Assembly: GCA_036172245.1 (NCBI GenBank)
Contig: JAYWIR010000004.1
Span: forward strand, 1,116,001-1,180,000
DNA from: Raillietiella orientalis
Taxonomy: Eukaryota
Length of the DNA: 64,000 nucleotides
Direction: 5' to 3'
Part shown: positions 1 to 51,066 of the stretch, one piece after another
Numbering within the stretch: the first letter of the stretch is position 1
How the letters are laid out: each line of letters starts with the position of its first letter
Translations under genes and position numbers: made by a program
The notes under the pieces: generated by a model
Seen by the model: only the letters and a program-made list of their open reading frames with translations
What the model was told of the DNA's origin: nothing
Databases searched by the model: none

Positions 1-561
1 TGGTTCTGCAGCAGAGAGTCGAGCTATGCTTTATCTTTGTCCGCAGCAACTTTACACGTAGGTGGAAGGTCACACCTGAGGAGCATCTTCTCTCCCTCCA
101 CATAGCGTACTGCGCACCGAACACATCCCTGTTTGAGTTCCATGAATTTGCGAAATGTCGGAAGATGTCTCCGCTTATGCGTCACGCACAACCGATGGAC
201 GCTGCTTCAGCAGCACCAGGAAGCGTCTCAGTGACGATAAGACATCCGCCCTCAGCAACCGTGTGTCACCTGCACTCGGATCGCCGCATCCGAAGCTTCC
301 GTCCCCACGCATCCCTTGACTAAGAGTGCGCTCTCCGGTTGGAACGAAAGAACAGCCACGTGTCGCATTTGTCCAGAAAGACCTTTGCGGGCGTTCCGCG
401 CTGGCGTTTTGCATCGACAAGCGCTTTCTTTCGCTCTCATGACAGTGTGTCCAGTTACTCTCTGGCCGCCTGTCACCTTGAAAAAGTCTCCAGAATTGAC
501 AGAAAGCGCGTGATGAATAGGTTGTCGGGGCTTTCTTCCTGCAACACGGGACGTTTTTCAG

Positions 562-6838: not shown

Positions 6839-9800
6839 ATCAAACCGCTCACAGCTCCAAACTTATTACCAAGAAACTGCTTGGAGCTCAATGCATTCAA
6901 AAATTCATAACCATCGATTACGACTCAAAAAAATGATTCCAATCCCTATCCAAAACACTAATCCACAACCAAACTTCAATCCAAAGCTCTGGATCCGAGC
7001 TGGCCACAGTCACACATTTTCGAAACACAGCTTGGAGGAGAATCCTTTAAAGTTGCTACAACACGCAAAACATACGCGGAAGACCAGTTCAGGTTGCTGT
7101 AAAAATATGTGCGAAAAACTCCATTTCTCGGATCCGCACGTGCACCATGGAAACTGCCACAGTCTGCCCCGAACGGAGTACCAGGTGCGTTTTCTTAGCG
7201 CTCCACTGCAAACGCTTCAGTGACTAGGACTGCGCAAGGGTGTAGGCTTGCTTCCAGCGTCCTCACCCTTTGATTCCGGTGCCAGTTTCGTTGACACGAA
7301 GGGATTTAACGCCGAATGTCACTTCCAGCAACATGGATTTTTGTCAGTGGGAAGAGAGTCATCGAAAGGAGTACAGCACATGACATCATGCAGAAAGTCT
7401 TGCATTCCATACTCATTTCTTCGTCCTAAAGCGTCAAACACAATATTTAAATGTGACATCAATCCCTCTCGAAGCTTTCGCAGATGTTTTCATTTCTAGT
7501 AGGCCGCGAGTACCATTCAAATGACCATGTTTTGAAATGGCCAATTCATTCATTTCATATGTGCATTCTTCAGCCACAGCGGTGTAACAAGATAGACGGT
7601 GAGATCAAAAAAAAAAAGGAAAACACCTTCGCCAACTCTTTTTGACGCTTGAGGAGTTCATTCCACTGTGAGTCTTCCTTCGCATCCATTTGTCATCTCA
7701 CTTGGTTCCCCAGAAATTTGCAACAACGTGAGATAAAAGGGACCATTTTAAGACGAATACAATATATCGAAGAGTTTCGGAAATTTGTAATCACCACAAA
7801 GAAATTTGTCCGGAAAACAAAATTGATGCTTCTCAAAAGCGCCGTCATTTTTGAAAAACGCATTTTCTTTCGTGTCGCATGGAACACCGACGACAGTTTG
7901 TCTGCAACAAATGCTGGCGATTATTCACAGATGGTCGGTGCATAGGCGTTTACTTCTGTTTCCAAGGGTACGAAAGTGTTCCAGTGAGGATTTCTCTCCA
8001 CTTATTGGTCTAACGTTAAGGAAAAGAAGCTGAAGTCGATGCATGCCGCATGTTGCTTCCCAATTCATAACCAAGACTTCCAGTAGATGGCGTTCTGAAT
8101 TACGTTGATCTTGAATTCCCTTCTCCCTCTTGCTTAGCAATCTGAAGGGGAGAAGTCATCGCAATACAACTGAAAGTTGAGAATCTCAGGGTCATTTCAA
8201 AAGATAAGACACACCGTGTTCGGAAACACAAATTACAACTAAATGCAGGTGGGTTTTTTTTGCTTCAAAATTCATGACTGTTCCTTGATGACTCCTGGAC
8301 ACTTACGGTTTTGCTCACAAAATATCATTCGTTTACGCTGTAGTGTTTCTCTATTTGTTCCGAATTCTGAATTTAAATCAGCAGTCGTCCATTGGATCAG
8401 CTAACCCTTGTAGAGTTTTGGATGATGTTTCCCAAGGTTGCATGAAAGCAGCAATCATTGCAAAAACAGCCGAAAGAACAGCGAGCTGCTCGATATAAGT
8501 ATAGATAGATTGTGTTCCTGCAAAATGTTCGTACCAATCACAGGTGCAACGTTCCTTGATCCTTTGCCTTTTCAAAAAGAAATACATGTTTTTTTTTTTT
8601 TTGTTTAAGCAGGCATCGTTTTGATAGAGCCCCACAGAGTGACTCATATTCGTCTATCTTTCAATATCGGTTCTCTCCCTTCGGTTATTCCCCTCGTGTT
8701 CTCGTTCGGATTGTAGTTTTTTTTGTTTTGTTTTTCATAGTGCCGTTAGTTAATTATCCTATCCTTCCATTTCCCTAGGAAAGGAATACTTGGGCTTTTT
8801 GGATTCGGTTCACAATTTCGATGCTTGCATTTTATTCGCATCTTTCCATCAGTTTCAACTACAATTAACTGCTACGGAGGCTCTGCAATGTCTGCAGTCA
8901 CTTTTGTTACGAAATGATGGATAGCACTGCTCGAAAACTTCCTGCAGTCTTTTCCTGAGTTACGCACCAGAAGGAAACCGTTTCTTCTCGTTTACTGCAA
9001 TCGCAACCAAAGACGGGAGGATAACTTCCCTGTGGAAAGTGTGATCCAAAGTGCAGAATATGGACAAATCAGGGAAGCTCGAATTTGTAGGTTTTCCGTA
9101 TACGTTTGCATTGTCTGAACAGTATGTGCCTGCAGGCATGAAGAATGAACTTGGGCTGCCGCGGTAATTTAGTCGGGAGCCAGCATTTAAACGTTCAGAA
9201 GAATATCCAAACGAGCATTTTCAGTACACAGTTGTACAATTCGGCGTGGGCATGCCCCAGTCATATGAAGACTTTCAGCACCCTAAAACAAGGGCTTGTG
9301 ATGGGTTACGATACGACACCAAAAGGTGTCTGCTAAAGACAGACTGCGTCCAAGTGGTAAGATGGAGAAACCCCAATTTTTACCAATTTTTTTTTGCATC
9401 TTAACGTAATTTGAAAAGACTTGGAAGCAGGAACTTTGTTTGAGGAGGTCGATCATTTCCCATAGTTTACATGGCTTCAATGAATAATTTTGTTACCAGG
9501 AAAAGAAAACACCAAAGCAATGCTTAAAGGAACGCCATCCTTCGGTTCCCAAAGAATGCTATGCCCTATATAATACTTTCTATCTATGCAAGCGGTCCTT
9601 GGTAGGTGAGAAGATTCTGTGATGCTGAAACTTCTTTTTCAGCTTGATAACCGTCAGCGATTTCGAGGTCGAGTTGGGTATTAATGTTCAGAAAGCAGAA
9701 ACAGGAATCGAAAAACGTACTGTTTGACTTGAGGGAGACCATCTTCATTTGTAACTGTTTGTTGTGTGATCACATTGTTCCCTGCAATAAAAGACTTCAG

Positions 9801-10748
9801 CAACCTGTAGAAGCACTGTTGATTAGCCCACATATTCTCTTATGGTCCCTAAGAACAAGACTAACCAAATAGGACCAACTCTTATCTGCATGCTGTGCAC
9901 CGATGTTGTTGTGTGGCAACTTAAATTATGGCAATGTAATGCCCAGTTTGAATGATGTTACTACCAGACAATTGCTGGTTTCCAATACCTTCGCTTTCAA
10001 AAATTTCGAATGACAAGAAAGCAAGAATTACAGGAACCAGCAGGAATTACAGCACCAAAAGGAACGCTTGAAGGAACAGCATCCAGCCGTTGCAACAAAA
10101 TTCTGAGCTTCCTGCAACATTTTTTACAAATGCAAACAATCTTTGATGTAGGATATTTTCCACAGCTGAAACTTCATCCTCATTGCTTAGCTTCATGGCT
10201 GACAGCAACTTGGAGATACAATTGCCTATTAACACTTCAAAGGGAGTCTAATAAGTGAACAGAAATGAGTTAGCAATTCATTACGGAAATCTCTTTTACT
10301 TTTCGGTATTGACTGAAGTGGACTGAAAGACAGAGAGGAAGCAGACATCAAGTTGGCAACGTACTGTCCAAGTATTTGATTCTCTGACTTGAGTTTCAGA
10401 TTTTCTTTTCTTACATTATGTACTTTCTGGGAGAAATCTGCAAAAGAGCAGTTTGAAAGGATAGAAATGGATACATTTGAACAAGACTATCCAAAGTTTT
10501 CTAGAACTCCAGTACTTATGAAATGAAGCGCACCTTCTCTTCATTTTCATCAGCACTGATGTCTTGATCTGCATCTAACAAGTAAACCACAAATGTACGT
10601 GATTATTATGTGACGACGTCGAAATTCTTCCAAATTCTGGATATGTCATGTTTGAGCTGGAAAGTGAACCAGCTAATGAAAGTTTTTTCCTTGCACTCCC
10701 CCATTAGCTCTGTCCAGCAGTAGAGTTGATAGCGGTGACTTCTCCTCA

Positions 10749-13880: not shown

Positions 13881-14148
13881 TGATCCCTCCCGAAGCGTGA
13901 GAAGAACAGACTCTCTTCTCCGGAGCCCTTACGGATTCATAGGGTGGTTCGCTCGTGGGATGTCCCCTATCTTGAAGAATTACACGCATCTTCGGGTAGT
14001 GTGGAAGCGTGTTAAAGGCTCTGAACCGCCTGGCGCCCGGCGCTTCTTGCGGTACTCGGCGAACCAAAAAAGGAAAACCTGAAAAAAAAAACGCTGGAAG
14101 GAAAGCAGAGAAGACAGTGAAGAGCCCAAAAGGATTTCCATCATCAGA
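13881..14148 (+). mobile_element. Partial (3' body) copy of the hairpin-rich SINE family
   Basis: gatccctcc..aagcgtgaga..gaac.gactc, cccctatc.tgaagaattacacgc, ggtact..gcgaaccaaaaaa and gctggaaggaaa match 46145-46460 and 28290-28545. Confidence 0.8.
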
Positions 14149-18129: not shown

Positions 18130-21100
18130 CCTGTCGCCGTAGGATCCTCGTAGCCTGCTGGAACGTCAACGGGCTGCGCGACGACGGCAACAGGCGGACA
18201 CCCTGCGTGACTTCGATCTGGCGCTCCTGCAGGAGATCCACGTGATCACCGCGGAGAACCCCCAGGAGATCGAGAGGATCGCAGGGGGTCGTCTGTTTAT
18301 CACCCGGGTGCGCCGGGCGTTTATTAAAAACTATCCGGGAACAGAGTTCCTGGACAAAGGAAAGACAAGAGACGAAGGGGGTGGGATCCCCGACACGCAG
18401 GTCGGTATGCCGAAAGTCCGGAACGGGAGGGAGGGGACCACAAATACACTACTATAAAAAATAAAAATAAAAATATGGTGGGCAGGGGACAGGGGTCTTT
18501 GATGAGTCCGTTCCTTCCTTTCAAAACCGGCGATGGATGCCGGCGATCTCTCTCCTTACGTCCTGTGGCAGACATGGGCCCACTCGGCAGCCGACGACAT
18601 GCTTGCGCTGGCTAATCCGGTGGACTGACGAACGATGGCCAGCTTCTCCAACTCTCGGTGGGCCTTGTCGATGGCGCGGGTGCAACACACGGCTGCAACG
18701 ACAGCACCTAAAGACAGGCCGCCTGGCGTGAAGAAGCGGCGCATCAAGTCCCTCGCGGTGTCCCCCTGGTGCAGGAGAGCTGAGGCCAGTCTCCGCCAAA
18801 GTCCTAGAAGGACACCGCAGTCCAGGAGCAGGTGCGGGAGCGTTTCCACTTCCCAGCACCGCTTACAGTTTGGGGAGACAACTCCCCCGGAAACACGGTT
18901 CGTCCGCTGGTTGGAGTGAAAACCCCAATGCAACAGCATGATGACGTCCTGCTTCCACGAAAGGGGGAACACAGAAGTGTTCAAACAGGAGGGAGGGACC
19001 ACAAGTTCTTCGGGGGGCACACTCAAGTGTTCACTCCACCGAAGGAGTCCCTTCGAGTTGTGGCGAGGCGTGGCTGCGTCTGCCAGCTCGCAAGTCCTCC
19101 AGCTGCCAATAGGTCGTGTTGTTCCTGCAATTGTGCAGGCGACCTCCCATCTCGCCGGTTCGCAGCTGTCATCTCTTGCCCTGAGGGGGTCGTCTGTATT
19201 GGCAATGCGGTGCTCGCAACACCTGTGGCGTCGCGTTTTTTATGAAGCCAGCGGTCGCCGCCTTCGTCAAGGACGTACGCTTCGACAAGGACAGTCGGGT
19301 TGGCCAGCTCATCCTTAGGTGGTCCGACCCGATCGACCTTGTCGTGACGAATGTGTACGCTCCGAGCGAAGGATGCGGGTACGGGGAACGTTCCCGGTTC
19401 CTCGAAACCCTGAAGCGCGACTGGCTGGCGGATACAAACGTACGCAAGGCACATCTGATCGGTGTGGATTTCAACATCCGCCTGCTCTCAGGTGTGCCTT
19501 GCGGGCAAAAAGACACAGCCAACGAGTTGTGCGCTGCTATGCGCACGCGCAACTTGTTGGGGGACCTACCAGGAATGGTCTAAAGCGTAGACCACGTCTT
19601 CCTTGACGCCGACCTGTGCCCACGGGTCGGCAGACGAGGGAAACTTCCGTCGACGCTATCGGACCACTTCCGGTTGATAATCGAGATTATGCCACGCGAC
19701 AAAGGACCACCATCCAGGGCGTGGCGTATGCCGGGGGACTGGATGCGCATCTCAGGTGCGGCGGAACATCTCCGCCAATTCCTGAGAGGCGTCATCCTCT
19801 GCAATCTTGAAGACTGGGACCGCATGAAGGTCTCGGTCCGCGAGTTCTGCGAGAAGTTCCCTCTGCACCGCCTGCCCCGGGGATTTGGTGAAGGGACCCG
19901 CAACAAAAGAGCGTATTTGCACGCCCGTCGTTTCGCAAGGACCCCTAACGTCCGTCGCTTGGCCGAATACAAAGCCGGGGCCGAGCGTCAAGCCTGGCAA
20001 ACCGGGCCGCCCGGCGTTCTGGACGACTTGGACCAGGAACACTCGGACCCGGCTTCGATACGTCGCCTCGTGCGGGGATTTTACTCCTCCCTTTACGCCA
20101 GGGCACCTGCGGAGTGGGACGCCTCGCGGCGCTTGCTCCCAGATGGAACCCTGGCCATAGGGGAGGAGGAGAAAGAAAGCCTTGACGAGCCTTTTACGAG
20201 CGGTGAAATCATCACCGCGATTAAAAGGCTCAAAAGGCGTAAGGCGCCAGGGAAGGACGACCTGCCGGCGGAGTTCTTTCAGTGATTCGCTGCAGAGCTG
20301 ACCCCCCTGGTGCTTAAATTGACACGGCTGATCCGAGACCAAGGCGATGTTCCCGCCTCGTTTCGGTAAGCCAGAGTGAGGCTCCTTCCTAAGGGAGGAG
20401 ACCTCAGGAAATTAAGCAACTGGCGTCCGATCACGATTGTGAACACGGACGCCAAGTTGCTGGCTGGACTGTGGGCTGCGCGGCTAAGACAGGTAGCTGA
20501 CAGCTTCATCAGCCCGGAACAGACGTACGCTGTTCCCGGGCGAAGCATGGAAGCGAACCTGTTCTTCGCCAGCACATGGTTCCATGTGCAACGCGAAGAG
20601 AAAAAGGAAAAAGAACGGAATGTCGGCAAACCTGATTTGGGGGCGCCAGCGCGGCAAGTAAGGGACGACCGGGATGGGAAGGGGGCTCTAGCGATCGCAG
20701 TCGATCTGCACAAAACGTTCGATTGCGTAGACCAGGATCTCCTTCTGGAGCTCCTGGATCGCATGGGCTTCCCGGACACCTTAACGGCCTACCTGCGCGC
20801 CTGCTGGCGCAATGCGATCATCAACTTGTTTCTCAGAGGACAGCAGGTGTTCGGTGTGCCGGTGAGGCGCAGCATCCGGCAGGGCAACAGCCTGAGTCAC
20901 CTGCTCTTTAGCACCTATTTCGAACTGGTGCTGAGAGCATACAGGGTGACATTGGCTGCCCTGCCAAACTCGTGTCCAGGTACGCCGGCCGTGTCGGCGT
21001 ATGCTGACGATCTTTTGCTCCTGCTGCCCATGTCCGCCCCGGCTTCGGCAGTCGAGGATTTCTTCGACTTGCTTAGCCGTGGGACAGGACTACGGGTGAA

Positions 21101-22793
21101 CAGGACGAAGTCGTCGCTGGTTGCGGTTGGTGCAACGTGGGCAGGACGACCTGATTGGATCCGCCTGGGGATTCCCACGGAGAGGTACTTGAAATACCTC
21201 GGCGTTCCGTTGGGGGACTTCTGCCAGTCAGGAGCCTGGTCAGGTCGTCTCCAAAAAGTGGAGTCAGCGATCGGCCCGTTCCTGGAAGGCAAGCTTCACT
21301 TGCAGGAACGGGCGGCGGCGTGGAACGCGTTCGCGGCCCCCCTCCTTCGCCCCTTGCTTTTCATTTGCCCCGTACCCCATGAATTGAAAAAAAGAACAAA
21401 GGACCTACGCATCGCCTTGTGGGCGGCGGGAGGCCTCGTGTGCCTTTAAAGGATTTGTGCGCTCCACGTCGGGACGGAGGTCTTAGAGTCCTGACGATGG
21501 AGCGATTGGAAACACAGCTGAGGTGGCGTACTCTAGCCATCGCAGCGAAGATGTGGAACACCCCTTGGTGCGTTCCAGCCCGCCTTCTCGCCAGATGTGT
21601 GTCCGGGACTGAAGGACTCGCGTCTTTTCTTCTGTGCTCCGGCCGGAAAATAAGAAGATGCGGACTTCTCCTGGGACGCATGGCCACCCTGGCAAAGGAG
21701 AACGGGTGGATGGCCTGCAGCCCCGCCAACTCCAGTGCATGGCTGGAAGAAACAGTTGAAACGTGGGCAAAGTTAAAAGACATCAGTGGAGAATCCTGCA
21801 ACCGCCTGCGTACCGGCATCTACACCCGCTGCACGCTGCGGAACATGATCGTGTGTCCCGCCAGAAGCACTTGGGCGGAGACGACCCCACTGGCCACGGC
21901 GGTGCCCTTCCTACGAAGGGCGCTTCAAAACAGCCGGAAGCCGAGATGGCAAGTCTCCTGCCGAATCGCAGGCAGAAAGAAGTTGATCAGCGGCTGGACC
22001 ATGGGAGAGCTGGCAGACGCCACGACCCCAAGCGTTCACCCGCATGGAATACGGAGATGGAGCGAGCTGCTTGGCATCCAGGCGGATGACCTAGAGTGGC
22101 CCCCGTTATTTAGAGACGCATTTACCTTCCCCCTCAAGTGGCAGGAAACGGCGCTGTTTTTGTTGCACTGGGGTCTTCCCTGCAACGCGCGCCGTCACTA
22201 CTGAACGTTGGGGAACGTGGGACAGAACTGTGCAGTGTGCGAGGAGAAGGAACCCCTCCCCCATCTGTTAGTGGACTGCGCTGCCCTCCGGCCCTTGTGG
22301 GAACGTTATGCTACGACCCTCCCTATGCCGGTCGGCAGTACCCCCAGAGACGTCTGAGACTCCTCTTCGTGCGAGACGCCCTGCCACCAGCCTCAACCCT
22401 GGCAGCGCTCTACTGCCTCCGAGGGACTGTGGCCTCCTGGAGCGCAGCCAACAGAGGAAGCAGCGACAGGGACCCCATCGTACACGCGGGTCGCTACCTG
22501 CGAATCGCGATCGGTTGGTCCCATCTGGGAATTATGACGAGGGACCTCGAGGGCATCCTGGAAAGGATGGTCTCCTCCTCCAGCGGACAGTGATCCCTTC
22601 CCGGCCCTCCAAATAGTTTCTTTTTAATTACTTCATTTATTTTTCTTTTTGTTTTACCCCCTATCCCCTCCGCTGCCGAGGAGAGACAAGCCGGCCTCAG
22701 AACCGGCTTCCTGTCAGGTCCCATGAAATATTGGCCGTAGCGGGGCCTAGTACCGCAAATGTAAAGTGTTTAGAAATAAACGCCCCGGCGTGA
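18130..22793 (+). mobile_element. Decayed L1/Tx1-like non-LTR retrotransposon A (APE endonuclease, RT, C-terminal Zn finger, structured 3' tail)
   Basis: APE motifs WNVNGL, LLQE, VYAP, G(V)DFN, DHVF and SDH. RT motifs KAPGKDDLPAEFF, WRPITIVNTDAKLL, DLHKTFD, RQGNSLSHLLF, YADD and YLKYLG. Several stops and frameshifts are present. Interrupted at 18297-19183. Confidence 0.92.
18297..19183 (-). mobile_element. 5'-truncated antisense LINE copy nested in the endonuclease of element A, with a 14-bp TSD
   Basis: agggggtcgtctgt at both 18283-18296 and 19184-19197. The insert encodes LLHWG...CKRCWEVETLPHLLLDC (zf-RVT-like) on the minus strand and ends ...aataaacgcccggcgcacccgggtgataa. Confidence 0.9.
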
Positions 22794-24999
22794 CCGATTG
22801 AAAACTACCTGATCCAACGTTTCACGCTCCGAGCGGGCATGCGGAGGTGGACGCAGCGGCACCGTTTGTCCCGAGCTCGTTCCCTTCCTGCAGTCGATTC
22901 CAAAGCGCCCACGAAGCCCTGAGACGGTGAAGGTCAACGGCGCTTGCAGATTGGTAGCAACAACAGCCAGAGCACCTTTTGTTGTCTGCCCCCCGCGTCT
23001 CCTTGTAGCGCTCCAAGGTAGCGTCCTGTGGGGACTTCTGACAGACCATTGCCGCACTCCAGAAGGGATGGTGCATCAGACCAGGCTTCGCCCGTCCAGC
23101 GCAGCAGTCAGCTCGCGGGGACTTTTCCCGGTCCCACCACACAACATAAACACGCGAGCGGGATCGAGGTAACCGTTGTTTCAGTGACGCAAGCACTCTC
23201 TCAAGGCCTTAAGGAAGATCGAATTGTCGTGCACACAGTCTTTGAGATCATCGAGTCTTTGAGAGCCGGAAGTGCCGGTTGGCGTATCGCGTTCGGTACT
23301 GCTCGGCGCGAGCGTTCATCCGCTGCCTAGCACCTCGGAAAAGAAGGCCACAGGGCGTGGTCGAAGCCACAGCCTCGAAGTTCACCAGCAGCGAAGCCGC
23401 AGGACTCGTACCGGAGTGTCACGAAATCTGAGCCATGCAACCGGATCGTTCGGAGCAGCCAGCATTCCTGGAGAGTTCCGCGCCCTCCACTGGCGCCCTG
23501 CTCCGCACAAGATGGCTCTGCTACACGCTCGGCGGCGACGCACAAGGCGAAAAAAAAAATGGGACGACTTCTCTCTAAGCCAAACCTAGGCAGGGGGGTG
23601 ATGGCTTGGGTAAGTGTGCCAGCCTCCATCCGTGAGAGGGCCGCAAGAGTCACACGGATTCGGCCGCGGACTGAAGGGTATCTGCTTCCCGCTACATCAA
23701 GGACAGAGAGGATGAGCCGCACGCGCTGGCGCTGCGCCCCTCGCGCTGGTCTGCCAGAGAAACGCCGTAGCGACACAAGAAGACACTACCTGATGCGAGG
23801 CAGGAGAGCGGCGCCACGATGATCATCACCCAGTGGAGTGGCATGTCGCCCGAGAAAGATGAGCGATTCGGCAGCTGCGCGCCACGTATGTATGCGCGCC
23901 GGTCGCTTCTCAGCCCCGCGTGCTACAACAGGGGCAGTGTTCACGGCTCGTCTCCGTCCTCTTCTACCGTATCCTCCAATACGGAGATGCAGTCGGGATT
24001 CATCGCTCGTTTTCCGGATCTCAAGACCAAGATCCGAAGTTCCCCACTCAAGGCGGAATTCCAATCCACAGAGAACCCGAGGGCATCCGAGACAACCGGA
24101 TAGCTCCCGTTTTTGGGGCACGAGCCGCGTCAGCAGCGAGGGGTCCTCACCGCTTGCATGGATTCCATCCCGGGCTGGAGAGAGTCGAACGGCTGCGCGC
24201 CGTTCCAGCGAGGCGGTGGTGGTCATGCTCCGCTGCGACAGCCGATGTCGCCTTTAGGCCGCAAAGAGAGAAGAACGCTTCCTCCATCGGAAAAGAAACT
24301 CGCGCAAGGAAATGCAACCCTCGACATCCGCAGCCTCGAAGCCTCTGCGGCTCTCCCTCCCAGTGCAAGATAGGAGGGCGCGGCGGGATGGCACTCGCCC
24401 AGTTCGCCGGTGCGCTCCTCCATCCAGGAGCGCGAGATGAAGATCTCACGCGCCTGACGATGTGCGTGGGCTCGTTTGCAGGGACCCGAAGGGTCCAACA
24501 ATCCGTCTATGAGTCTCCTCCGACAGCCCCGCACGGTGGTCTCAAGCAGATGTGTGCGGCTCTAGCGTTCGCCGGGAGGAGCCCTCGCGAACAAGTGAAA
24601 TGGTGCGCCGAACGTACCTCGGCGGGATCTTCTTCTAGAAAGGGGAGGTGCATGCTCGGCCTTGGTGCGGGCGTTGTAATCCCTGCTGCACTCGATTTTG
24701 CTCATCTGTCAATGCAGCGAACTCCTCCCAGGCGCCCGACGTCGGGCCCTCCCCCTAGAGTGCGGGTTCCCGGGAAGGCCTTCCTCCTCTCTTGCCCTTC
24801 GGTAAAAACTGCCGGAGGCCACCTCTCATGGAACATACGTTCGCAACCTCCAATGCGATCCCAGTCTCTCGCTGCGTAGATGCAGCATCGAGCTAGAAAG
24901 TTCCGGATGGTCGCAGCAGCTACGTTTGCCCCTCTCCCCCAGCCGGCGCCCTTATTGGGAAATGGCGTGGAATACCGAAAAACAGTCATCGGGAAGGAA

Positions 25000-25345
25000 A
25001 AGGAAAAAGTCTTTTATTCGTAGTGGAAATGTCACTCTCACCTTCAGCGTCCCCGATAGAGGGATTTCTGCACACTCCCTCGCAGGGACAGGTGAGAGGA
25101 GTGTGAAGAATGAAAAGAAACAACCAAATGAAATAGCTGCTTTCCGAGCTAAAAGGGGGAAGGGAAGGAGGGAACTAGGAAAAGGGGAGAATCATAGCAG
25201 ATTCCCTGGCGTTCTCTTCATCCTCGCCAGGACACTGGCGAGTTCCTCCTTGAGGGTCGTTGGGCACGGCAACCTCCGTCGCGACCCTCACGGAAGAAAT
25301 GACTGTCGAAGCGGCTTCCTTCCTATTCTGATCCCTTCCCCGGGC
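25000..25345 (-). mobile_element. Antisense 3' fragment of a related LINE
   Basis: The minus strand encodes LKEELASVLARMKRTP, like KQELANILTRMQKTP at the end of element C. It is followed by a pyrimidine-rich tract and a tccc-tgcga-ggga hairpin. Boundaries are approximate. Confidence 0.6.
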
Positions 25346-25347
25346 AG

Positions 25348-27255
25348 TTTAGCACCTACTTTGAGTTGGTGCTGAGAGCGTATAGGGTGACTTTAGCCCC
25401 CTTGCCGAGCTCGTGCCCCGGCACGCCCGCCGTTGCAGCCTATGCCGACGATCTTCTGCTCCTGTTACCTATGTCCACCCCGGCGAAGGCGGTCGGAGAT
25501 TTCTTAGACCTGCTCAGCCGCGGGACCGGACTGCAGGTGAACATGGCGAAGTCGTCGGTGGTGCCAGTTGGTGCAGCGTGGGCAAGGCAGCAGGACTGGG
25601 TCCGTTCTGGGATCCCCACAGCCAGGTGCTTCAAGTACCTTGGTGTGCCGTTGGGGGACTATTCCCCTGCGGAAGCGTGGTCCAGCTGCCTCCAAAAGGT
25701 TGAGACGGCAATCGGCCCGTTCCTGGCCGCGGTTTGGAACGCATTTGCGGCCCCCATCCTCCGCCCTTTGATTTTTGTGTGCCCCGCCTCCAGAGAATGC
25801 AAAAACAGGAGAAAGGACCTCCTACGTATCGCCCTTTGTGGCAAGGGGAGGCCCCGAGTCCCTCTGAAGGACTTGTGCGCTCCGCGTCGGGACGGCGGTC
25901 TTGGCCTCCTGACGCTGAAGCGCGTGGAAATCCAGCTGCGATGGCGCACCCTCGCCATCGCAGCGAAGATGTGGAGCACCCCTTGGTTCATTCCGGCTCG
26001 CCTCCTTGCCAGTCGTGTGCCCCGATGCGAAGGACTCGCGTCTTTTCTTCTGTGCTCCGGCCGGAAGATCCGAAGATGCGGCCTACTGCTCGGGCTCATG
26101 GCAATCCTGGAGAAGGAGAACAGCTGGATGATTTGAAGCTCCGCCAACTCCTCCGCCTGGCTGAAGGAGACTGCTGGCACCTGGGCTAAGCTACACCAGA
26201 GAAGTGAAGACCTCATGAATTGCCTTCGTGTCGGCCCATACGCCCGCCGCACCCTGCGGGAAATACTTGAATTTCCCGCGGGTTGCACGTGGGCAGAGAC
26301 GACCCTCCTTGCTACGGCGATGCCCTACCTCCGGAGGGCGCTTAGCGGCAGCCAGAAGCCGAGGTGGCAAGTCTCCTGCCGAATCGCAGGCAGGGACAAG
26401 ATGTTAAGCGGCTGGACCACAGGAGAACTGGCGGACGCCACTACACCGAGCGTCCAGCCGAGAGCACTTTTGCGATGGGGCGAGCTGCTCGCCATCCCCA
26501 TGGATGTGCTGAAGTGGCCCCCGGTGTTGTTTGAATCAAGGATCCTGTCCCTTAAGTGGCAAGAATCGGCGCTGCTACTGTTGCATTGGGGTTTACCCTG
26601 CAACGCACGCCGCTTCCACTGGACAAGGGGAGCGGTGGATCCTCATTGTGCCAGGTGCGGAGAGCGGGAATCGCTGTCCCACCTACTTGTTGACTGTGCT
26701 GCCCTCCGTCCCCTCTTGGAATGGTTCGGGACGACCCTCGGTCTCCCTGTGGGCAGCCAACCCAGCGACGTTCTCCGTCTTCTCTTCGTTCGGGACGCCC
26801 TTCAGCCAGCTGCAGCCGTGGCAGCACTCTGCTGTATTCGAGGCATCGTGGCGGCCTGGAGCGATACCAGCGAGGAGATGGTGGATTCAAACGCGATGGC
26901 TGTCATCCCATATGCTGTTCGCTTCCTGCGGAGAGCTATTGGATGGCCCCAGCTGGGAAGACTGAAGACGGACCTCGAGGGTATCCTGATAAGGATGGAC
27001 CCTCCTCAAAGTGGACCGTGATCCCTTCCCTTCCCTCCAATAACTCTTTTTTTTTTTTTTTTCTTTGTTTTCTGGTTTATTTTTCTTTTTGTTTTTCCGC
27101 CCATCCCCTTCCACTGCCGAGGAGAGTCACACCGGGCTGCGTCCCGGTGTCCGGGCAGGTCCGGCATTAAGTGGCCGTTAGTGGGGCCTTGTACCACATA
27201 CTGTAATGACGAGTGAAACGTTTTTTTTAATAAACGTCCCGGAGTACCCGGGTGG
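25348..27255 (+). mobile_element. 5'-truncated L1/Tx1-like element B (RT C-terminal half, zf-RVT, structured 3' tail)
   Basis: YADDLLLLLPM, FKYLGVPLG and CARCGERESLSHLLVDC. Collinear with element A from about 20908. The tail is aataaacgtcccggagtacccgggtgg. Confidence 0.9.
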
Positions 27256-27311
27256 CATCCCCGAGCAGTTTCGGGCACCATCATGTCACGGAATAAGCAG
27301 AGAGCTGGTTT

Positions 27312-27560
27312 GGCACCCGGTTTCTCCGGGGAGTTTATTTATATAAAAAATAAACATATAGGTCGTGCAGAGGAGAGCTGAGCGGACGTCGCAGCAGGCG
27401 ACATTCTTTTCTGGGTGAGCTGTGTCCATGGAGTTCTTCGGGATACGCAGGATTGTGGGAAGGAGTGCCCACACACTCCGGAGACCTGCGCCCCACCTTA
27501 CTAACAGGTGCAGGAAGGACTCCGCTCCCCATACACCATGGGAATTTGGGAGCACACTTT
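27312..27560 (-). mobile_element. Antisense LINE 3' fragment lying tail-to-tail with element B
   Basis: The minus strand carries a gtcgc-ctgct-gcgac hairpin, then aataaactccccggagaaaccgggtgcc. Confidence 0.6.
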
Positions 27561-27718: not shown

Positions 27719-28599
27719 CTGGTGTTAGAGGGTCCATGACTGTGGTCTCTGAAAGCGGCACTAAGAGTTGCCGGTTCGAATCCACCCTTGAAGGATCGAC
27801 GTCGATAAACGGGTACGTCGTTGGTTTGAGTTCCTCCTTCAAGATGACACTGGTCGGCTTTTATTCATTCGGATGCTGCACTGGTAGCGGTTAAAAGCGG
27901 ATGAACTGATGAATAGCCAGGAGTGGGAGTCGACCTCCGGGTCCTTCCAGGAAAAAGAATCAACGAGTGAGAGTTCCTTCCTGTTGTGCAAAGGATCGAA
28001 CCCACGAAGTCCGTTTTCTACCATGGAGTAGGTGTGTTACCTCTCCAGAGTGCAAGGAAGTGTGCCGCTCCCTCCAGGGAGCCCCCTTCGGAATTTCGGA
28101 AGCATGCCTTCGGGTTCTCTTCAGAGGAGGAGTAAACAGGAGCGGTTCCCTTGCGGATTCCCCCCAAAAAAGAAAAATGAAGGGGAACCCTCCGGGAGTC
28201 CTTCCGAAGAGAACAAGGAAGGAGACTCCCTTCGGATTTCCCCTCGGAGACAACCAGGGTGGTGGAGGTTCCCTTCGGGGATTTCTCCCCAGGAGTGAGA
28301 GGAACGGACTCCCTTCTCCAGAGCGCTTCCTGGATTCATAGGTTGGTCCCTTCCGGGGGCAGCCCCTATCATGAAGAATTCCACGCACTTACGGGTGGCG
28401 TGGAACAGCTGTGTGATCCGCCATGCGCGCGACGACTCTTGAGGTACTCAGAGAACCAATAAACAAGAAAACTCCCACCCAGCCCTCCCCAAAAAAGCTG
28501 TAAAGGAAGCAGCGAAGCCACAAAAGATCCCCAAACAATTTCCATTATCCTAGGCCAGTAGTAACGATCTCCTCGTGGAGTCACTACTGGCCTTTTTTT
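27718..28599 (+). mobile_element. tRNA-headed hairpin-rich SINE, copy 1
   Basis: B box ggttcgaatcc at about 27773. The body is homologous to 45615-46508. It ends in the stem aggccagtagt...actactggcct followed by a T run. The 5' boundary is approximate. Confidence 0.75.
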
Positions 28600-28639
28600 A
28601 GGTTGGTTTCTCTGGGATTTCTTCTTTTTGGCAACAAGC

Positions 28640-29860
28640 GAACCCTCGCGTCGCCACCTCCCTCGCTTCAGCTCCTTCCTCTCTTTGGAAGAGAAGCGAC
28701 GGTTGTCATTCGTGGAAATTCTGCCGCCCAACTTTAATGCTTGGCAGAGGGAGACTGTTGAATCCTGGGCTGCAGTACAGGGAATGCGCCCTCAAGATCT
28801 TCACTTCCTGAGACATCTATTGCCATGACCACTGGAAGTGGTGATATAGGACGCGGCGAGGCATTCTGCTCCGACCGCCACCCCCCTTGCGGCAGCTCTG
28901 TATGCTCTCAAGGAAAGAGAAGACAGTAGCCTACTGGGGAGGTGGAAGCGTTCCTGCACTATCGTGGGAACTCCAAAACTCTTGGGTGGCTGGAAGGCGC
29001 GCGAGTAGGCAGATGCAGCCACTCCACAAACAGCTGCTGCGGGACTTCTTCGGTGGTGCGAACTGTCGAGTGTTGCTCCCAAAGAACTAATGGTCTCCTC
29101 AAACTGCGTGAACGCATCATTGTTTTCACTGAGTTGGAAACAGGACGTGCTGCTCTTTGTGCACTAGGGATTCCAGTACAACGAGCGGTGGCACCGAGTT
29201 TCCGGAGGGTTTGCTTCCCCTAACTGTGCCAGTTCCCCCTACTTATGGAATGCGGTGCCCTCCAAAGGCTGTCTGGCCGGCAGCAGCATTCCTGCACCAG
29301 GAGGACACCGCTCGAGATGTGCTGCGAAAGTTCTTCGCACCGAAGGACTCATGACTGGCGCGGTGATGGCAACCACGGGTTGCATTCGCGCCATTGTCAC
29401 AGCCCGAAATGTGCTGCAGGCTACCGCGAAAGGATGTCACCACCATGGCAGCCGTCTATCAGCGCGACTGCAAGGAGGCATCACTTGGACGAAGAGACAA
29501 AGGCGATCACCGGCATAGAGCGCCGATTTGAGAATGGTTAGGAACGTTCGAGTCCGGGGTCCCTGGTCCGTTGCCCTTCTTTCTTCCTTTATTTTTTTCA
29601 TTCCCTATCCCTGTTCGTTTCGCAATTTTTCCCGGTGTTTTTTTTTTTCCTTTGCATCCCAGTGCGTGCGGTGCGAATCCAATGATCCCTGCCCCATCCC
29701 ACCCAATCATATTTATTTTGGTTGCCCTCTTGTCCCTCCTCCGTTCCGAACTTTCCGTTTTTCCGGTCTGCGTGCCAATAGACCCTCTTCTTTATTTCTT
29801 GTAGTCTTCGGTTATGAACTTTGTTCCCATTTTACAAAAAAATAAATGCCCCGGCGTGAT
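28640..29860 (+). mobile_element. Decayed LINE 3' portion, same subfamily as the 18297-19183 insert
   Basis: FLHQEDTARDVLRKFFAP matches LLHQGDTARDLMRRFFTP. The 3' UTR is similar and ends aataaatgccccggcgtga. Confidence 0.75.
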
Positions 29861-29863
29861 TAG

Positions 29864-32800
29864 GTGAAAAATTTCAATCTCCGCCTGCTATCGGGTGCGC
29901 CGAACGGACAGCACAACCTGGTGAACGAGGCGTGGACGTTCGTGCATGCGCGCAACTTGTTAGCTGTAGAGACCGGGATAGAGGACAGCATCGACCACGT
30001 CTTCCTCGAAAACCATATGTACGCAGGTGGGAAGATGATGCTGGGTGCAGTCGAAGCTGTCGGACCATCCAGGTTGGATCTGGAAATTCGGCCACACGAC
30101 AGGAATCCCTCGAATAATGCGTGGAGTCTACCAAAGGACTGGTTTAGCCTCCCGAGAGCTGCGGAGCATCTCCGCGAGTTCTTGTGAGACTTCGTTCTTC
30201 CAGCGTTCGGAATCTAGATTCTCAACCGGGTGCGCCGGGGTGTTTATTTTCTCGAAGAAAAATTTTACATCTCGAATCTGTGGCTGGACCAGTAATACAG
30301 CCACGCGCTAGATGTGCAAAACCTGCCAGGTCACCGGTTCGCAGACCGGTGTGGTTCACCGCAGCTGCAAAGGGGAGGGGTCACAAACAATAAGAAAAAT
30401 GAAAATGAAAAATAAATAAAAGAACTGGGGAGGGCATGAGAAGGGATCACAGCCTGCTGGGAGGGTCCGGTCACATCCTCTGGAGGATGCCGGCAAGCTC
30501 TTTCTGTATGTTGACTTCCAGGTGGGGCCATCGCGTCGCTATCTTCAGGAAGCGGACGGCATATTCGCTGCCATCCCTATCGCTGGGTCCTCCTGTCGCG
30601 TTGCCACATGCAGCGACGATCCCACGTAGACAGCACAAGGCTGCAAGGGAGGCCGCTGTCCGAAGCGCGTCATGAACAAAGAGGGGTGAGGGATCTCGAG
30701 GACTGGGACCTGTTGAAACGCTCAGTCCGCGAGTTCTGCGAACAGTTCCCGATGCACCGTCTTCCCGCAGGATTCGGAGAAGGCGTGAGGAACGAGAGAT
30801 CGTACCTCTACGCCATTCACTTCTCCTCCGTCTGGAGACTAGGGGAACATCGAGAGGGGGTCAGGCGTCAAGCCTGGCAGTTGGGGTTGGCCATCCTGCT
30901 CGATGATCAGGGCCAGGAACATCCGGATAAGTAAGACGCATCGTGAGCAGATTTTACTTCTCCCTGTACGCAAAGGCACCCTACGAGCAGCAAAGCTGCG
31001 GAGCGTCTGCTTCCCGATGGGGTGCCTGCGTTAGGGGAGGAGCAACGGAACAGCCTCGAAGAGGAACAGCCTTTACTATGACGAAGATCATTGCCATCTG
31101 AAAGCTCAGGAGACGCAAAGCACCAGGAGAGGACGGCCTGCCCGCGGAGCTTCACTAATGCTTCGCAGCAGAACTGGTCTTCTTTGTACAAACTGCATGC
31201 TGACCCGCAAACGAGATATTCCCGACTCGTTTCGATTAGCTAGAGTACTTCCCCTCCTCAAGGAAGAAGACCTTCGCAGAATTGGCAACTGGCATCTTAT
31301 CACAGTGGTGAATGCGAATCAGAAGCAGCTTGCCAAACTGTAGGCAGAGCAACTGGTCGGGTGGACGGGTGACCGAATCCGTGAACAGTCTGGAGCAGAC
31401 GTTCGCTATTCAGGGACGATTCATGGGGGTTCACCTGTTCTTTGCGAGCACATGGTGGCAGTTGCAAACAAGGGTTGCGTCGGCGGGTCACGAGAATCCA
31501 GGATTCTCCTCCTGCCGGAGATGGGAAGGTCACGAAAGTACACCTGGAGCCCTTGAAGTCGCGATCGATTTGCATAAAGCTTTCGACTGCATCGACCAGG
31601 AACTTCCTCTGGAGGGATCTCCTGGAACTCATAGGATTCCCGGCCGTATTCCTGGTCTATCTGCACTCCTGCCGGCTCAATGCAATAATTAACATCTTTT
31701 TTAACGGTTGACTCGCGTATGGCGTGCCCGTTCGCCGCGGCGTAAAGCAGGGCGACGGCTTGAGCCCCCTGCTCTTCAGCATCTACTTCGAGTTGGTGCA
31801 TACAGGGAGACTCTGGTAACCCAGCATAGCCCATGTCCGGGAACGCCTGTCGTGTCGGCTTATGTTGACGATTTGCTGCTGCTTCTCCCCATGTGCACTC
31901 CGGCATGAGCGATCGGAGTTTGCTTTGAGTTGCTTAGCCTCAGGATAGGACTGCAGGTGAGCAGGGCGAAGTGCCAACTGATCGGACAGAATCCACTTGG
32001 CGAACCTCACGAGCGAGTACATCATGCACCTTGGTGTTCCCTGGAGGAATTTCTACGTAGCGGAAGCCTTGTCCAGCCGTCTTCAGAAAGTGGAAATGGC
32101 GCTTGGTCCGTTCCAAAACGGGAGGTTCTACTTCCTGGAACAAGCCACGGTGTGGAACGCGTTCGCGACCTTCCTTCTCCTCCCCTTGATTTTGTTTGCC
32201 CTGTTTCTGTGGCCATTCAAAGAAGGACCGACGACCTCCTCAGAAAATCCCTGTAGGGCAAATGGAGGTTCAGAGTCCGTTTAAAAGACCTCTGTGCTCC
32301 TCGTAGGGATGGTGGACTGGGTCTCCTTACTCTGGAGCGGATGGAGCGACAGCTCCGATTCCGCAGACTCGCCCTCGCATCCAAGCTCTGGACTGCACTT
32401 GGTGCTCACCGGCAAGAATCCTCGCCAAACAGCAAGCCAGCTCCTAAGGACCGACCTCGGTCGTCGTGGCCACCGAGAGGAGTCTGGGCCACTCGGTCCC
32501 CAGCTCCGAAACATGGTTGCCTTCGTGCAAAAGTACCCCTAGATCTCCGTCCTCCCCGCGAACTGTACTGTCTAGCTGCAGGAATCAGTTTCCTCTTGGG
32601 TAGAAATCAACAGCACGGGAGAAGCAGAGTAGATCTGCCTTAGGAACAGCAGATGTGATCGTCAGTCGTTATAGGAGATCCTGGGAAACACCAGGAATCT
32701 GCTTTGGGCGTCGTTTCAGTTGTTCCGGTACCCTTTTCCCAGTGCTGCCCTCCCTTAGAGGACAGCCATATTCCATCGAGGTGGGAAGTAACATATCAAA

Positions 32801-33590
32801 TACAAAACAAGAACAACAGAGTGCATGGACAACTCGGTAGCTGACGGACACTGCCACACTGAGGGTCCCACCCGAAGGACTGCTACGCTAGGGAGAGCTA
32901 CTACAAATTCCTCCGAATGAGGTACAGTGCCGCCAGCGTGCTACCCTCCCCTTAAAGTAACAGGATTCGGAGATCCTGCTGCTGCATTGGGGCCTCCCTT
33001 GCAACGTCTGTCGACACAACTAGACCCGGGGGAGGGCGAGCCCGAACTGCGGCAGGTGCAGAGAGCGAGAGGCGCTCTCTCACCTGCTCATGGATTGTGT
33101 CGCCCTCCGTCCCATGTGGGAATTCTTTTCCGCGTCCTTGTGGACCTCCAAGCACAACTCCAGAGAAGTTTTAAAGCGCCTCTTGCTGCGCGACGCCCTC
33201 ATGCCGGCCGCATCAGCAGCCCTTTGCTGCCTACGCGGGATCGTGGCTGCACGGAGTAACGCCAGAGGTCAGAACGACAGGGACGCCATCTATTTTTCTG
33301 TCCTTTTCGTGAGGATAGCGTGAAGATGCCTTCATCTGGGAATCTTGAAACAGGAACTTGCCAACATCCTTACAAGGATGCAGAAGACGCCCTCCAGTAA
33401 ACAGCGATTCCCTCTCGAACCCTCCAAAGTTCTCGTCTGTTTTCTTTTTTGTTTTATTTGTATTTTTGTTTACCTTCCTTTTCCTTTTTCTTCTGAGACG
33501 GACCTCGCCGGTCTACTTGCCGGTTCTCAACAGGTCCTTTTTCTATATCTATGTAACGTATGTTAATTTTTCTATAAATACAGCCTCGTC
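29864..33590 (+). mobile_element. Heavily decayed L1/Tx1-like element C (end of APE, RT, zf-RVT)
   Basis: FNLRLLSG, IDHVFL, AAEHLREFL, LEDWD, IDLHKAFD, KQGDGLSPLLF, YVDDLLLLLPM and HLLMDC are collinear with element A. Many stops and frameshifts. Confidence 0.85.
30220..30690 (-). mobile_element. Antisense LINE 3' fragment nested in element C
   Basis: The host frame AAEHLREFL...DLEDWD is split here. The minus strand encodes the C-terminal ALCCLRGIVAA segment, then an accggt-ctgcga-accggt hairpin and aataaacaccccggcgcacccggttg. No clear TSD. Confidence 0.75.
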
Positions 33591-42896: not shown

Positions 42897-43118
42897 GGAA
42901 TGAAATCTTCTAGCAGGAGCAAATCCTGGATGCCATCTCGACAGCTTACAACTGAATCCCGTCAATCACGGAATAGGTAAAACAACAAAGATTCGAGAGT
43001 TGTTTGAAAACGTACAAACAAGAAAAGGACGCATTAAGCAGAACATGTGGAATCGAAAACATGCGTACATGAATCGGTCATGAAATCAAAGAATGCCGAT
43101 TGTTCTCAGGGAAGTACG
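42896..43118 (+). pseudogene. Inverted remnant of the NOB1 3' end and downstream sequence
   Basis: Reverse complement of about 4596-4819; for example catgaaatcaaagaatgccgattgttctcagggaagtacg matches 4596-4635. Confidence 0.9.
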
Positions 43119-44830
43119 TGAGCGGTGAGGTCCTCTTCGCTGGCGAAGGGGGAGGAAACACCACAGAAAAAAAAAAATACAGGGGAGGGCAATGTCTCCC
43201 AGGGAGGGGAGTGCAGGCAAGGAATCAGTTCTCCGCGAGGGGTATTCTGCATCCGAGTTTGGATGCGGACAAGTGCCGGTCGTAGTGTGCGTAGCTGGCG
43301 CCATAGGGAAGCCTTCTCCATTAAGATGGCTGCCAGCGAATGGCATTCCGGCTACTTCAGCCTCTCCTCGACGCATACCATTTGTCCAGGATTCCGCGTA
43401 TGCTGCAGAGAACTGCTACACACGCAGCTGCTGGCAAAGCGTCCCGCATCAGGAATTGACGGAAAATGTTTTTCGGGTGCGGGATCGATGATCAGGTGCG
43501 GGAAGGTTTCCCTTTCACCGCAGCCTGCACAATTGGCATCCGGACTCCCTAATGTTCAGTGGGAGAGGTATGCTCTGCAAAGGAGTCCCCAATGTAACTC
43601 TAGCAACGCCGTCTCCTGCCAATCCAAGGAGAGGCAACCATTGTCGCAACGCGCTGGGGGCCACTTCACTTCCTCTGGGGGTATGCCGAGCAGCTCGCCC
43701 CAGCGCACAAGTCCTTTAGGCGGGAACTCGGGGTTGTAGCGTCCGCTGACCCCCGAGTAGTCCACGCATTCAAGAGTTTTTTCCTGCCTCCTATGATGCA
43801 GTACACTTCCCACGATGCCTATTCCTGGCTGTCCCTAGGGTTCTCTAGCTCGGGCAGCACTGGGGCAAGGAGAGTAAATGAAGCCCACGGAAGTTTCTGT
43901 TGGTTGGAAACGATCTTCTGCAGGGGGTGTCCATAGTACCTGCCTCTACGGAGGCAGGAGAAGTCCACATCGTTTGAGCCGTTGATCTTAGTCCGCGCGG
44001 AAACTGACTCCTGAAGCCAGGTTGTCCAGTTCGAGAGGAGACAGGAGATCCACTTATTTTCTCTCACCAGGGCAACCAAGTCACGCAGCTGAAAACAACA
44101 ATGGTTCAGACTGTGGTCGTTAGCCACAAGGATCGAGGTCAATCCGTTGCAGCTGGTTGCCCTACTGGCGAGGAGGCGTGTAGGGGCGCACCATGGCGCT
44201 GCCCAGTATGTCGACACAAGGTCGAGTTTGCCAATTTGGAGCTGTCTCTGCATGTGCTCCAACGTCAGGAGGCCTAGTCTACCGTCCCTGCGTGGAGAGC
44301 ACAAGTCTTTAAGACGGACGTGGGACATCTGTGTGCCCTACAGGGCTTTTCTCAGGAGGACCTTTGTCCTCTTCTTGATTTGGAGTGGGGCGCGGCGAAA
44401 AAAAAGTAGGGGGCGAAGCAGGAGGGCCACGAAAGCGTTCCACACCGCGGCCCGTTCCAGCAAGTAAAACTTGTCGTCCCGAAACGGGCCGATCGCCAAC
44501 TCCACCTTTTGGAGATGATCGGACCAGGCTATTGCTACGCGGAAGTTCCCCAACGGAACGCCAAGTTACTTAAAGTACTGCCCGTGGGGATCCTCAAGCG
44601 GACCCAGTCCGGCCGTCCAGCTCACGTTCATCCAATTGTTATCATCGACGACTTCGCCCTGTTCTCCTCCAGGTCTGTCCCGCGGCTGAGCAGCGAAGAA
44701 CTCGAGAGCAGAAGCTCGGGTGGACCCGGGAAGCAGCAGCAGAAGATTGTCTGCATAGGCCGACACTCCTGGCGTGCCGAGACACGAGCTTGGCAGGGCT
44801 GTCAAAATCTCCTTGCATACTCTTAGCGCT
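43119..44830 (-). mobile_element. Antisense 5'-truncated L1/Tx1-like element
   Basis: The minus strand encodes SAYADNLLLLLP, ERAAVWNAF, RLKDLCSPRRDGRLGL, WQETALLELHWGL and a CAGC...HL Zn-finger remnant. Confidence 0.88.
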
Positions 44831-44833
44831 GGC

Positions 44834-50906: not shown

Positions 50907-51017
50907 CCGGGCTGCGTCCCGGTGTCCCGACAGGTCCTGTGTTTACGGCCGTGGTGGGGCCTCGTACCACGCATGTAGAGTTTATAAATAAACGCCCCGG
51001 GCGTACCCGGGTGATAA
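50907..51017 (+). mobile_element. Solo ~110-nt structured LINE 3' tail
   Basis: Closely matches 27132-27255 (ccggg-ctgcgt-cccgg, caggtcc, ggccg..ggggcc..accac, aataaac..ccgg..ccgggtgataa). Flanked by the imperfect direct repeat aacgcccgctcgcaccc / aacccccgtcgcaccc. Confidence 0.8.
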
Positions 51018-51066
51018 CCCCCGTCGCACCCGGGAACCGCGTTCCCGCAAAAACACACGGATGCCA

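Follow-up and report, generated by a model that had tools for sequence, protein, structure and literature searches.

How an L1-like long interspersed nuclear element (LINE) can come to an end at a defined nucleotide, with no poly(A) tail behind it, is the question raised by a 64,000-nucleotide stretch of the Raillietiella orientalis genome (contig JAYWIR010000004.1, positions 1,116,001 to 1,180,000, hereafter the window). An initial annotation had proposed that L1/Tx1-like LINEs nested in this stretch terminate in a hairpin placed after an AATAAA signal, and that target-primed reverse transcription (TPRT) starts from this structured RNA end. The copies are best explained as diverged subfamilies of an L1-group (L1/Tx1-type) non-long-terminal-repeat retrotransposon, equipped with an apurinic/apyrimidinic-type endonuclease (APE), a reverse transcriptase (RT) and a CCHC motif, that would use stringent 3'-end recognition; a probability of roughly 0.6 is assigned to this reading. 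The DNA copies end at a fixed nucleotide 23-25 nt past AAUAAA, without a copied A tail, at targets that are neither A-rich nor complementary. Of the earlier proposal, the fixed tailless 3' end is retained, four copies bounded by a target-site duplication (TSD) now attesting it, and the role given to the terminal hairpin is judged unlikely.

The firmest evidence is provided by copy N, a 5'-truncated fragment lying antisense within another copy, A (Table 1). N is flanked by the TSD AGGGGGTCGTCTGT, a perfect repeat that is exactly 14 bp long because the next bases disagree at either edge, and this 14-mer has 2 occurrences among the 127,974 positions of both strands of the window. Deleting 18297-19197 yields a single 179-codon open frame across the endonuclease region of copy A, and the frame restored on excision therefore identifies N as a true nested insertion. 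The perfect duplication described in the initial annotation as fixing the 3' end of this copy is thus exact, unique in the window and consistent with the host frame. The terminal sequence of N, AATAAACGCCCGGCGCACCCGGGTGATAA, reads AATAAA-CGCCCGG-CGCAC-CCGGGTG-ATAA and lies directly against the TSD. Translation of the remainder gives the last ~210 codons of open reading frame 2 (ORF2), including the motif CX2CX7HX4C, followed by a 3' untranslated region (UTR) of ~260 nt, and tblastn matches this copy to the C-terminal pieces of copy A.

The same terminus recurs in other copies. A pattern scan of the window for AATAAA-N(0-12)-CCGG-N(3-12)-CCGG returned 5 matches against 0.02 expected, with at least five found in 0 of 100 shuffles. 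A profile hidden Markov model (HMM) built from six tails and run on the 64 kb recovered its six source tails together with a seventh that was absent from the model, at 27310-27340(-) with E 1.4e-4; beyond these seven tails nothing in the window fell under E 4.9. The AATAAA plus CCGG..CCGG termini previously reported at 27229-27255, 27312-27340 (-), 30222-30248 (-) and 50987-51017 were all matched, with the second now extended to 27310, and the last, described as also ending in gataa, does end in GGGTGATAA, as N does. A shorter variant had been noted as well, and it is present at 22775-22793 in copy A and at 29841-29859 in copy E; these two of the seven, whose ends lie at 22804 and 29870, have lost the ability to fold the CCGG terminal hairpin. 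Alignment of 3' junctions and TSDs, the check recommended at the outset, was carried out within the window and gave seven tails sharing one end and four TSD pairs adjoining it.

AATAAA is invariant in the tails (7/7), and in all seven copies the DNA ends 23-25 nt past this signal and 5-6 nt past the terminal stem. Resemblance among the tails stops straight after TG plus 3-4 nt, again in 7/7. A poly(A) tail, an A run or a microsatellite is carried by 0 of the 7 ends according to Tandem Repeats Finder and the tail alignment, which agrees with the absence of such tails first reported. The ends are not free of A, however: the bases past the hairpin and TG are ATAA (twice), AGAA, AAAA (twice), GCA and CCAA. 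The ends carry 1-5 A.

Four TSD pairs adjoin the shared 3' end, with identities of 14/14 for N, 13/14 for B and 8/10 for D, and with an 8-mer core for F, which is less sure. The duplication of B has the consensus TCCCCGRGCAG plus TTT, is 13/14 identical, and with at most one mismatch occurs only at these two sites of the window; its left copy lies precisely where homology to copy A starts. Copy D interrupts copy H2, and its TSD falls exactly at the break in the H2 reading frame. No convincing TSD emerged from a search around copies A, E, H2 and C. In the null test, 46 of 300 random flank/1-kb pairs produced a fuzzy 12-mer match, so only matches exactly at the homology boundary were accepted. 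The four TSDs are C-rich, begin with A, T, T and C and are unrelated to one another in sequence; the targets are thus not of an A-rich kind, and they show no pairing with the RNA end. Canonical L1 integrates at TT/AAAA-type sites. Its combination of poly(A) tail and A-rich target is not found here (0/7 tails; C-rich TSDs), nor is the single specific target that characterises the Tx1 clade, as two TSDs lie in LINE endonuclease DNA at different positions.

These targets also bear on whether the shared terminus might be a piece of a specific target site, acquired through Tx1-type site-specific insertion, and not a part of the element. Tx1-clade elements often insert into particular transposons, according to PMC4494074, and 4 of the 7 hairpin-type ends adjoin endonuclease-coding DNA of other LINE copies (at 22804/22805, 29870/29871, 18296 and 30219). 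Set against this, the target site of N, once the insert is taken out, reads as an unbroken endonuclease frame without a hairpin, and four TSDs give four unrelated sequences, which leaves the target-site explanation barely credible. The junctions at 18296 and 30219 are antisense nested insertions with TSDs. Those at 22804/22805 and 29870/29871 are sense head-to-tail joins, in which the later piece, a 5'-truncated copy or a fragment, begins at the last base of the preceding copy and a TSD was not found. Ends adjoining LINE endonuclease DNA may possibly reflect a target preference or template jumping by the RT, the cases being too few to separate the two.

An internal control is available in an unrelated 1.1-kb retroposon at 45417-46529, which carries an A19 tail, an AAAA target and the 12-bp TSD AAAAGGTGTCTG, and whose empty site is preserved in a paralogous duplicate at 9321-9332. 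Poly(A)-type insertion therefore exists in this genome, and its tails persist; with an A19 tail persisting in the same window, simple tail loss in the hairpin family is therefore unlikely. On the tail-loss view these LINEs would be typical poly(A)-dependent L1-type elements that either received a short A tail on insertion or had it removed later by decay, deletion or misassembly. The 1-5 A at the ends would suit it, the copies are old enough to have gathered frameshifts, and L1 tails shrink with age. Yet the perfect 14-bp TSD of N stands directly past GATAA and the 13/14 TSD of B directly past GGCA, an A-rich remnant is seen at 0 of 7 ends, the targets are not of the A-rich type, and the other retroposon keeps its A19 at an AAAA target, so that lost tails are a decidedly improbable account of the family.

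The control retroposon itself ends in a strong stem-loop (GGCCAATAGTAACGA...TCGCTACTGGCC), followed by TTT and then A19. The same family occurs at 27924-28600 and 13887-14145, the copy ending near 28600 having T7 in place of the A tail, and no protein family was found in the sequence of this retroposon family.

The assignment to the L1 group was assessed through the protein-coding parts, which are 64-73% identical between copies. The 359-codon open frame at 20370-21449, which constitutes the RT of copy A, matches RVT_1 with E 3.1e-20. Compared with solved structures, the RT of the window finds human L1 ORF2p as its best match (E 5.6e-19 to 1.7e-18; L1 ORF2p chains range from 5.6e-19 to 1.1e-17), against 3e-11 for R2. 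An exhaustive protein search produced 10,997 matches at E<=0.001, including 7 at E<=1e-30, one of which has 70% identity. Among the 15 top relatives scanned, an N-terminal Exo_endo_phos domain together with RVT_1 was present in 10 and zf-RVT in 7, and the endonuclease, linker, RT and C-terminal pieces of the window are colinear with these relatives. For the endonuclease piece of copy A, relative P0044 gives an alignment (E 2.8e-10) covering its residues 20-131, which lie inside its Pfam Exo_endo_phos domain. Relative P0029 and L1 ORF2p align over residues 2-865 with E 2.7e-63, against 7e-23 for R2. Named protein matches are plant L1-like proteins at ~26% identity. Copies A and N both show the motif CX2CX7HX4C, and the zf-RVT matches there are sub-threshold (E 0.0066-0.033, that of N being weak at 0.033). 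Pfam gave no direct recognition of the frameshifted endonuclease fragments of the window, and a PDB search with one endonuclease fragment returned no match. An APE-type endonuclease, an RT nearest to L1 ORF2p and a C-terminal CCHC after the RT are features by which the L1 group is defined, and the L1/Tx1-type identity first suggested for this family stands on the nearest RT, the domain order and the colinear relatives.

Membership of a clade in which tailless hairpin ends are the rule, such as CR1, L2, RTE or related clades, would make the 3' end nothing out of the ordinary. It would sit well with the unrecognised ORF1, with the ~26% identity to named L1-like proteins and with a placement drawn from similarity and domain order. 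It appears improbable, as L1 ORF2p is the best solved match both for the RT of the window and, over 865 residues, for P0029, the relatives follow the EEP-RVT_1-zf-RVT order, the CX2CX7HX4C motif is present and the named matches are plant L1-like.

The 3' UTR provides the structural part of the argument. Six alignable UTRs share one order, consisting of a T-rich and then a C-rich tract, an upstream hairpin (hp1), a further hairpin of which each of the two UTR types has its own form, a T-rich stretch, AATAAA, the GC hairpin and UGAnAA. The T-rich-then-C-rich starts were located at 27047-27096 (a 50-nt T-rich run in copy B), 30380-30420 (-) and 18454-18475. Mean pairwise identity reaches 75% in the last 31 nt and 63% in hp1 but 36-42% in the remaining UTR, and a 3' terminus conserved well above the remaining element in diverged lineages is one of the hallmarks of stringent-type LINEs, the functional class of Okada and Ohshima. 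A second hallmark, a 3' UTR stem-loop with compensatory changes, is found in hp1, where two-sided changes affect 5 of 8 pairs, 81% of cells are paired and the loop CUGCG is retained in 5 of 6 copies. The two halves of each TSD agree far more closely than do the copies among themselves, and the copies are therefore separate lineages, each retaining the same end; this points to selection on the end. For the whole structure, observed values were reached by 0-11 of 500 shuffles on 4 of 5 measures and by 198 of 500 for further pair types, although with six related sequences this control may be exceeded without any structure. Slid controls were 29-43% paired, compared with 78% for the structure itself. 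Rfam, applied to the whole window at gathering thresholds, gave 0 matches; the 3' element of UnaL2 is among the Rfam families.

The terminal hairpin differs from hp1. Pairing is kept in 90.5% of its cells, G-U replacements included, and 5 of its pairs vary on one side only, while compensatory changes occur in 0 of 7 pairs, the hairpin is lost in 2 of 7 copies and its energy does not rise above that of shuffles. These results do not uphold the suggestion in the initial annotation that this hairpin may define or shield the end, position and conservation being what speaks for it. Taken further, the suggestion would be that the terminal GC hairpin itself makes or protects a non-polyadenylated RNA end a few nucleotides past the stem, in the manner of histone mRNA, and that TPRT is primed from this structured end. 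The DNA end 5-6 nt past the stem in 7/7, the last 31 nt as the best-conserved part of the UTR and the high pairing of the stem would agree with it; nonetheless we regard it as unlikely. Besides the lack of two-sided changes and of excess stability, copies A and E were evidently inserted and have no hairpin, which may have decayed after insertion and is weak either way, and an invariant AATAAA at canonical spacing is more simply explained by ordinary cleavage. The terminal hairpin is not known to resemble the histone stem-loop consensus.

Stringent recognition with an ordinary RNA end remains the preferred reading. Since the copies stop 23-25 nt past an AATAAA that never varies, the RNA end could come from an ordinary cleavage/polyadenylation site whose A tail the RT leaves uncopied. 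Cleavage of the transcript, probably with polyadenylation, would take place at the normal spacing from AAUAAA. A protein of the element would then bind the structured 3' UTR and position the template, and TPRT would begin at the cleavage site or 0-2 nt from it. Primer-template pairing would be unnecessary, as in R2 and L2-type stringent LINEs, and the terminal hairpin may be part of the recognised or positioning module without having to create the end. A bolder version is entertained tentatively, and we would sooner doubt it than adopt it: an L1-type ORF2 protein in which poly(A) recognition has been wholly replaced by a structured 3' module, with a fixed start at the cleavage site or just past the terminal hairpin and with neither tail nor target pairing. 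Such an enzyme might, moreover, leave a truncated template and continue at the precise 3' terminus of another LINE RNA, an idea hinted at by the head-to-tail joins at 22804/22805 and 29870/29871. If true, fixed-end reading by ORF2 would be a natural L1-group counterpart of the precise initiation of R2.

Several points weigh against stringent recognition in an L1-group element, in addition to the unsupported terminal hairpin and the limit of the shuffle control given above. Folding energies are no better than those of shuffles, with z from -1.97 to +0.84 for tails and from -1.15 to +0.47 for whole UTRs. The end is imperfectly fixed, as copies B and C finish in GGCA and CCAA and not in GAnAA, and copy H2, whose 3' end reads CGTCAAAA, has no CCGG hairpin and perhaps finishes in AAAA. 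The TSD of F is ambiguous, its flank resembling hp1. Pfam detected no ORF1 in the frames upstream of the endonuclease of copy A, and the other copies are 5'-truncated. The L1/Tx1-type placement is drawn from similarity and domain order, not from a phylogeny with named references, and polyadenylation of the transcript is read purely from the AATAAA spacing. The tail profile found only the seven LINE-derived tails in the window and no short interspersed nuclear element (SINE) sharing them. Finally, the sample consists of seven copies in one 64-kb window, all truncated or frameshifted and none demonstrably active.

Comparison with known systems places the finding within existing knowledge. Ohshima 2012 (PMC3472496) tabulates L1-clade families without a 3' repeat (flowering plants, 9 of 233; green algae, 5 of 15) and describes 'stringent' L1 lineages with conserved, covarying 3' stem-loops, proposing that stringent recognition is ancestral in L1; a 2013 review restates this (PMC3747384). 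A per-family list of 3' ends was not found in the searchable supplements of Ohshima 2012. The novelty implied by the initial annotation was consequently overstated, and its own ground for rejection, an RT falling in a clade already known for such ends, applies in part through PMC3472496. The finding fits the known stringent LINE class and the tabulated L1-clade families without 3' repeats.

Maize LINE1-1_ZM ('monocot 1a') and Chlamydomonas L1-1_CR share with the present family an L1-type ORF2, conservation of the last few dozen nucleotides and a covarying 3' stem-loop. Unlike the described stringent L1s, which end in poly(A), the window family has no tail and places a second small GC hairpin between AATAAA and the end. 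On the published descriptions it is further set apart from the plant and algal stringent L1s by a host that is not a plant (BBS7, astacin fragment) and by the lack of a partner SINE in the window. Vertebrate L1s from fish, frog, lizard and mammal, as surveyed by Boissinot and Sookdeo 2016 (PMC5381506), have AATAAA followed by poly(A) in all those surveyed, and their UTRs contain poly-T and poly-C tracts. The window family is like them in an RT nearest to human ORF2p, in T-rich and C-rich UTR tracts and in a canonical AATAAA near the end, and differs in the missing tail, the non-A-rich targets and the 23-25 nt of structured sequence past AATAAA. A 3' stem-loop is proposed even for human L1 (PMC5135761).

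For UnaL2 and ZfL2 of the L2 clade and for R2, binding of the protein to a stem-loop in the 3' UTR is proposed, the start of the cDNA is defined and pairing with the target is not needed, according to PMC4176376, PMC3747384 and PMC11194090. The mechanism proposed here would, by analogy, resemble that of eel UnaL2, zebrafish ZfL2 and R2. UnaL2 and ZfL2 belong to other RT clades and end in short tandem repeats that serve slippage, of which there are none here. R2 inserts site-specifically by means of a restriction-like endonuclease; neither property is present in the window family, and the RT clade is again another. Members of the Tx1 clade, the sister of L1 (Xenopus Tx1L, Keno, Kibi, Koshi and Tx1-Mar), habitually insert into other transposons (PMC4494074). 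The domain order is the same as in that clade, and two TSD-bounded copies here lie inside other LINE copies; Tx1 elements use specific target sequences, in contrast to the four unrelated targets of this family. A literature search found no L1/Tx1 family described as ending 23-25 nt past AATAAA with a hairpin and no tail, and no tailless L1/Tx1 elements beyond plants and algae, both being weak absences since Repbase/Dfam reports and many journals lie outside its coverage.

Understanding how such ends are chosen has wider significance, as structural work on human ORF2p leaves open template choice by L1-type enzymes. A close architectural relative that reads a structured end and not poly(A) would be a useful comparison for ORF2p, and precise RNA-templated insertion systems could be developed from such an element. 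Tailless L1-like ends also defeat annotation heuristics that seek poly(A), and they matter for transposable-element boundaries in this genome. The coordinates of all features are collected in Table 1.

Table 1. LINE copies, target-site duplications, 3' UTR elements and neighbouring genes located in the 64-kb window.
Feature	Coordinates	Strand	Remarks
Copy A, host of N	18143..22804	+	endonuclease, RT, CCHC motif, 3' UTR; ends TTGAAAA; 5' limit uncertain
Copy N, 5'-truncated LINE fragment, 887 bp	18297..19183	-	ends in GGGTGATAA, adjoins TSD
TSD of N, side of N's 3' end	18283..18296	.	exact 14-mer, elsewhere only 19184-19197
TSD of N, side of truncated 5' end	19184..19197	.	exact 14-mer
Terminal module of N	18297..18325	-	AATAAA (18320-18325), 7-bp hairpin, then UGAUAA
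hp1 of copy N, upstream 3' UTR hairpin	18390..18405	-	CCGAC-CUGCGU-GUCGG; UTR alignment columns 37-52
Copy B, 5'-truncated within RT	25348..27257	+	73% identical to A; ends CCCGGGTGGCA (GGGTGGCA)
Left TSD of B	25337..25347	.	TCCCCGGGCAG + TTT microhomology to 25350
Right TSD of B	27258..27268	.	TCCCCGAGCAG + TTT
Copy C, very short tail fragment	27310..27372	-	AATAAA 27334-27339; ends GGGTGCCAA; 5' limit and TSD uncertain
Copy E, ORF2 C-terminal fragment and 3' UTR	28724..29870	+	short-variant tail, terminal sequence GGTGAAAA(A); adjoins H2; 5' limit uncertain
Copy H2, more divergent LINE	29871..33590	+	~64% identical to A; begins inside endonuclease region; 3' end uncertain
Copy D, 471-bp 3' fragment nested in H2	30219..30689	-	ends CCCGGTTGAGAA (GGTTGAGAA)
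TSD of D, GGRATCTMGA	30209-30218 and 30690-30699	.	8/10 identical
Copy G, RT-to-3'-UTR fragment	43121..44833	-	broken off inside hp1 at 43121; uninformative on 3' end
Copy F, tail fragment ~110 nt (hp1 to end)	50907..51017	+	ends GGGTGATAA, as copy N
Candidate TSD of F, CCCG[C]TCGCACCC	50894-50906 and 51019-51031	.	8-mer core unique in window
Astacin-like fragment	36802-37062	+	host gene fragment
Protein gene with several RRM domains	51070-53419	minus	host gene
BBS7 gene	55042-57094	minus	beta-propeller, GAE, platform and hairpin domains; introns roughly 60 nt

The surroundings of the LINE copies have eukaryotic gene content, represented by BBS7, the multi-RRM gene and the astacin fragment, and ~50 bp separate the 3' end of copy F from the point where the RRM reading frame ends. 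Among the protein clusters nearest to the BBS7 exon, Arthropoda is the most frequent taxon, no more than a lead, and BBS7 compared with longer proteins gave no match. The LINE nest extends from ~17.8 kb to ~33.6 kb at 54-60% GC, and the DNA on either side has 32-47% GC. Two GC-rich stretches (about 59-61%) with long open frames, 22805-25347 and 33600-36000, adjoin LINE copies; neither gives a Pfam match or any likeness to LINE proteins. The first of these stretches, which houses copy B, was considered as an older LINE copy and rejected, as it is endonuclease-like only for ~45 nt at its start. The remainder of 22805-25347 showed no match with the LINE proteins of the window or with four relatives, and its LINE identity was dropped.

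A large direct segmental duplication relates 18-10653 to 39714-47838 in several blocks that are 87-95% identical. What sets its two copies apart are insertions: the retroposon with the A19 tail, copy G of the LINE family and a 226-bp piece in inverted orientation (4593-4819 versus 42896-43121). A 224-bp direct repeat, 93.8% identical, occupies 61497-61720 and 63770-63992, where the window is AT-rich at its right end.

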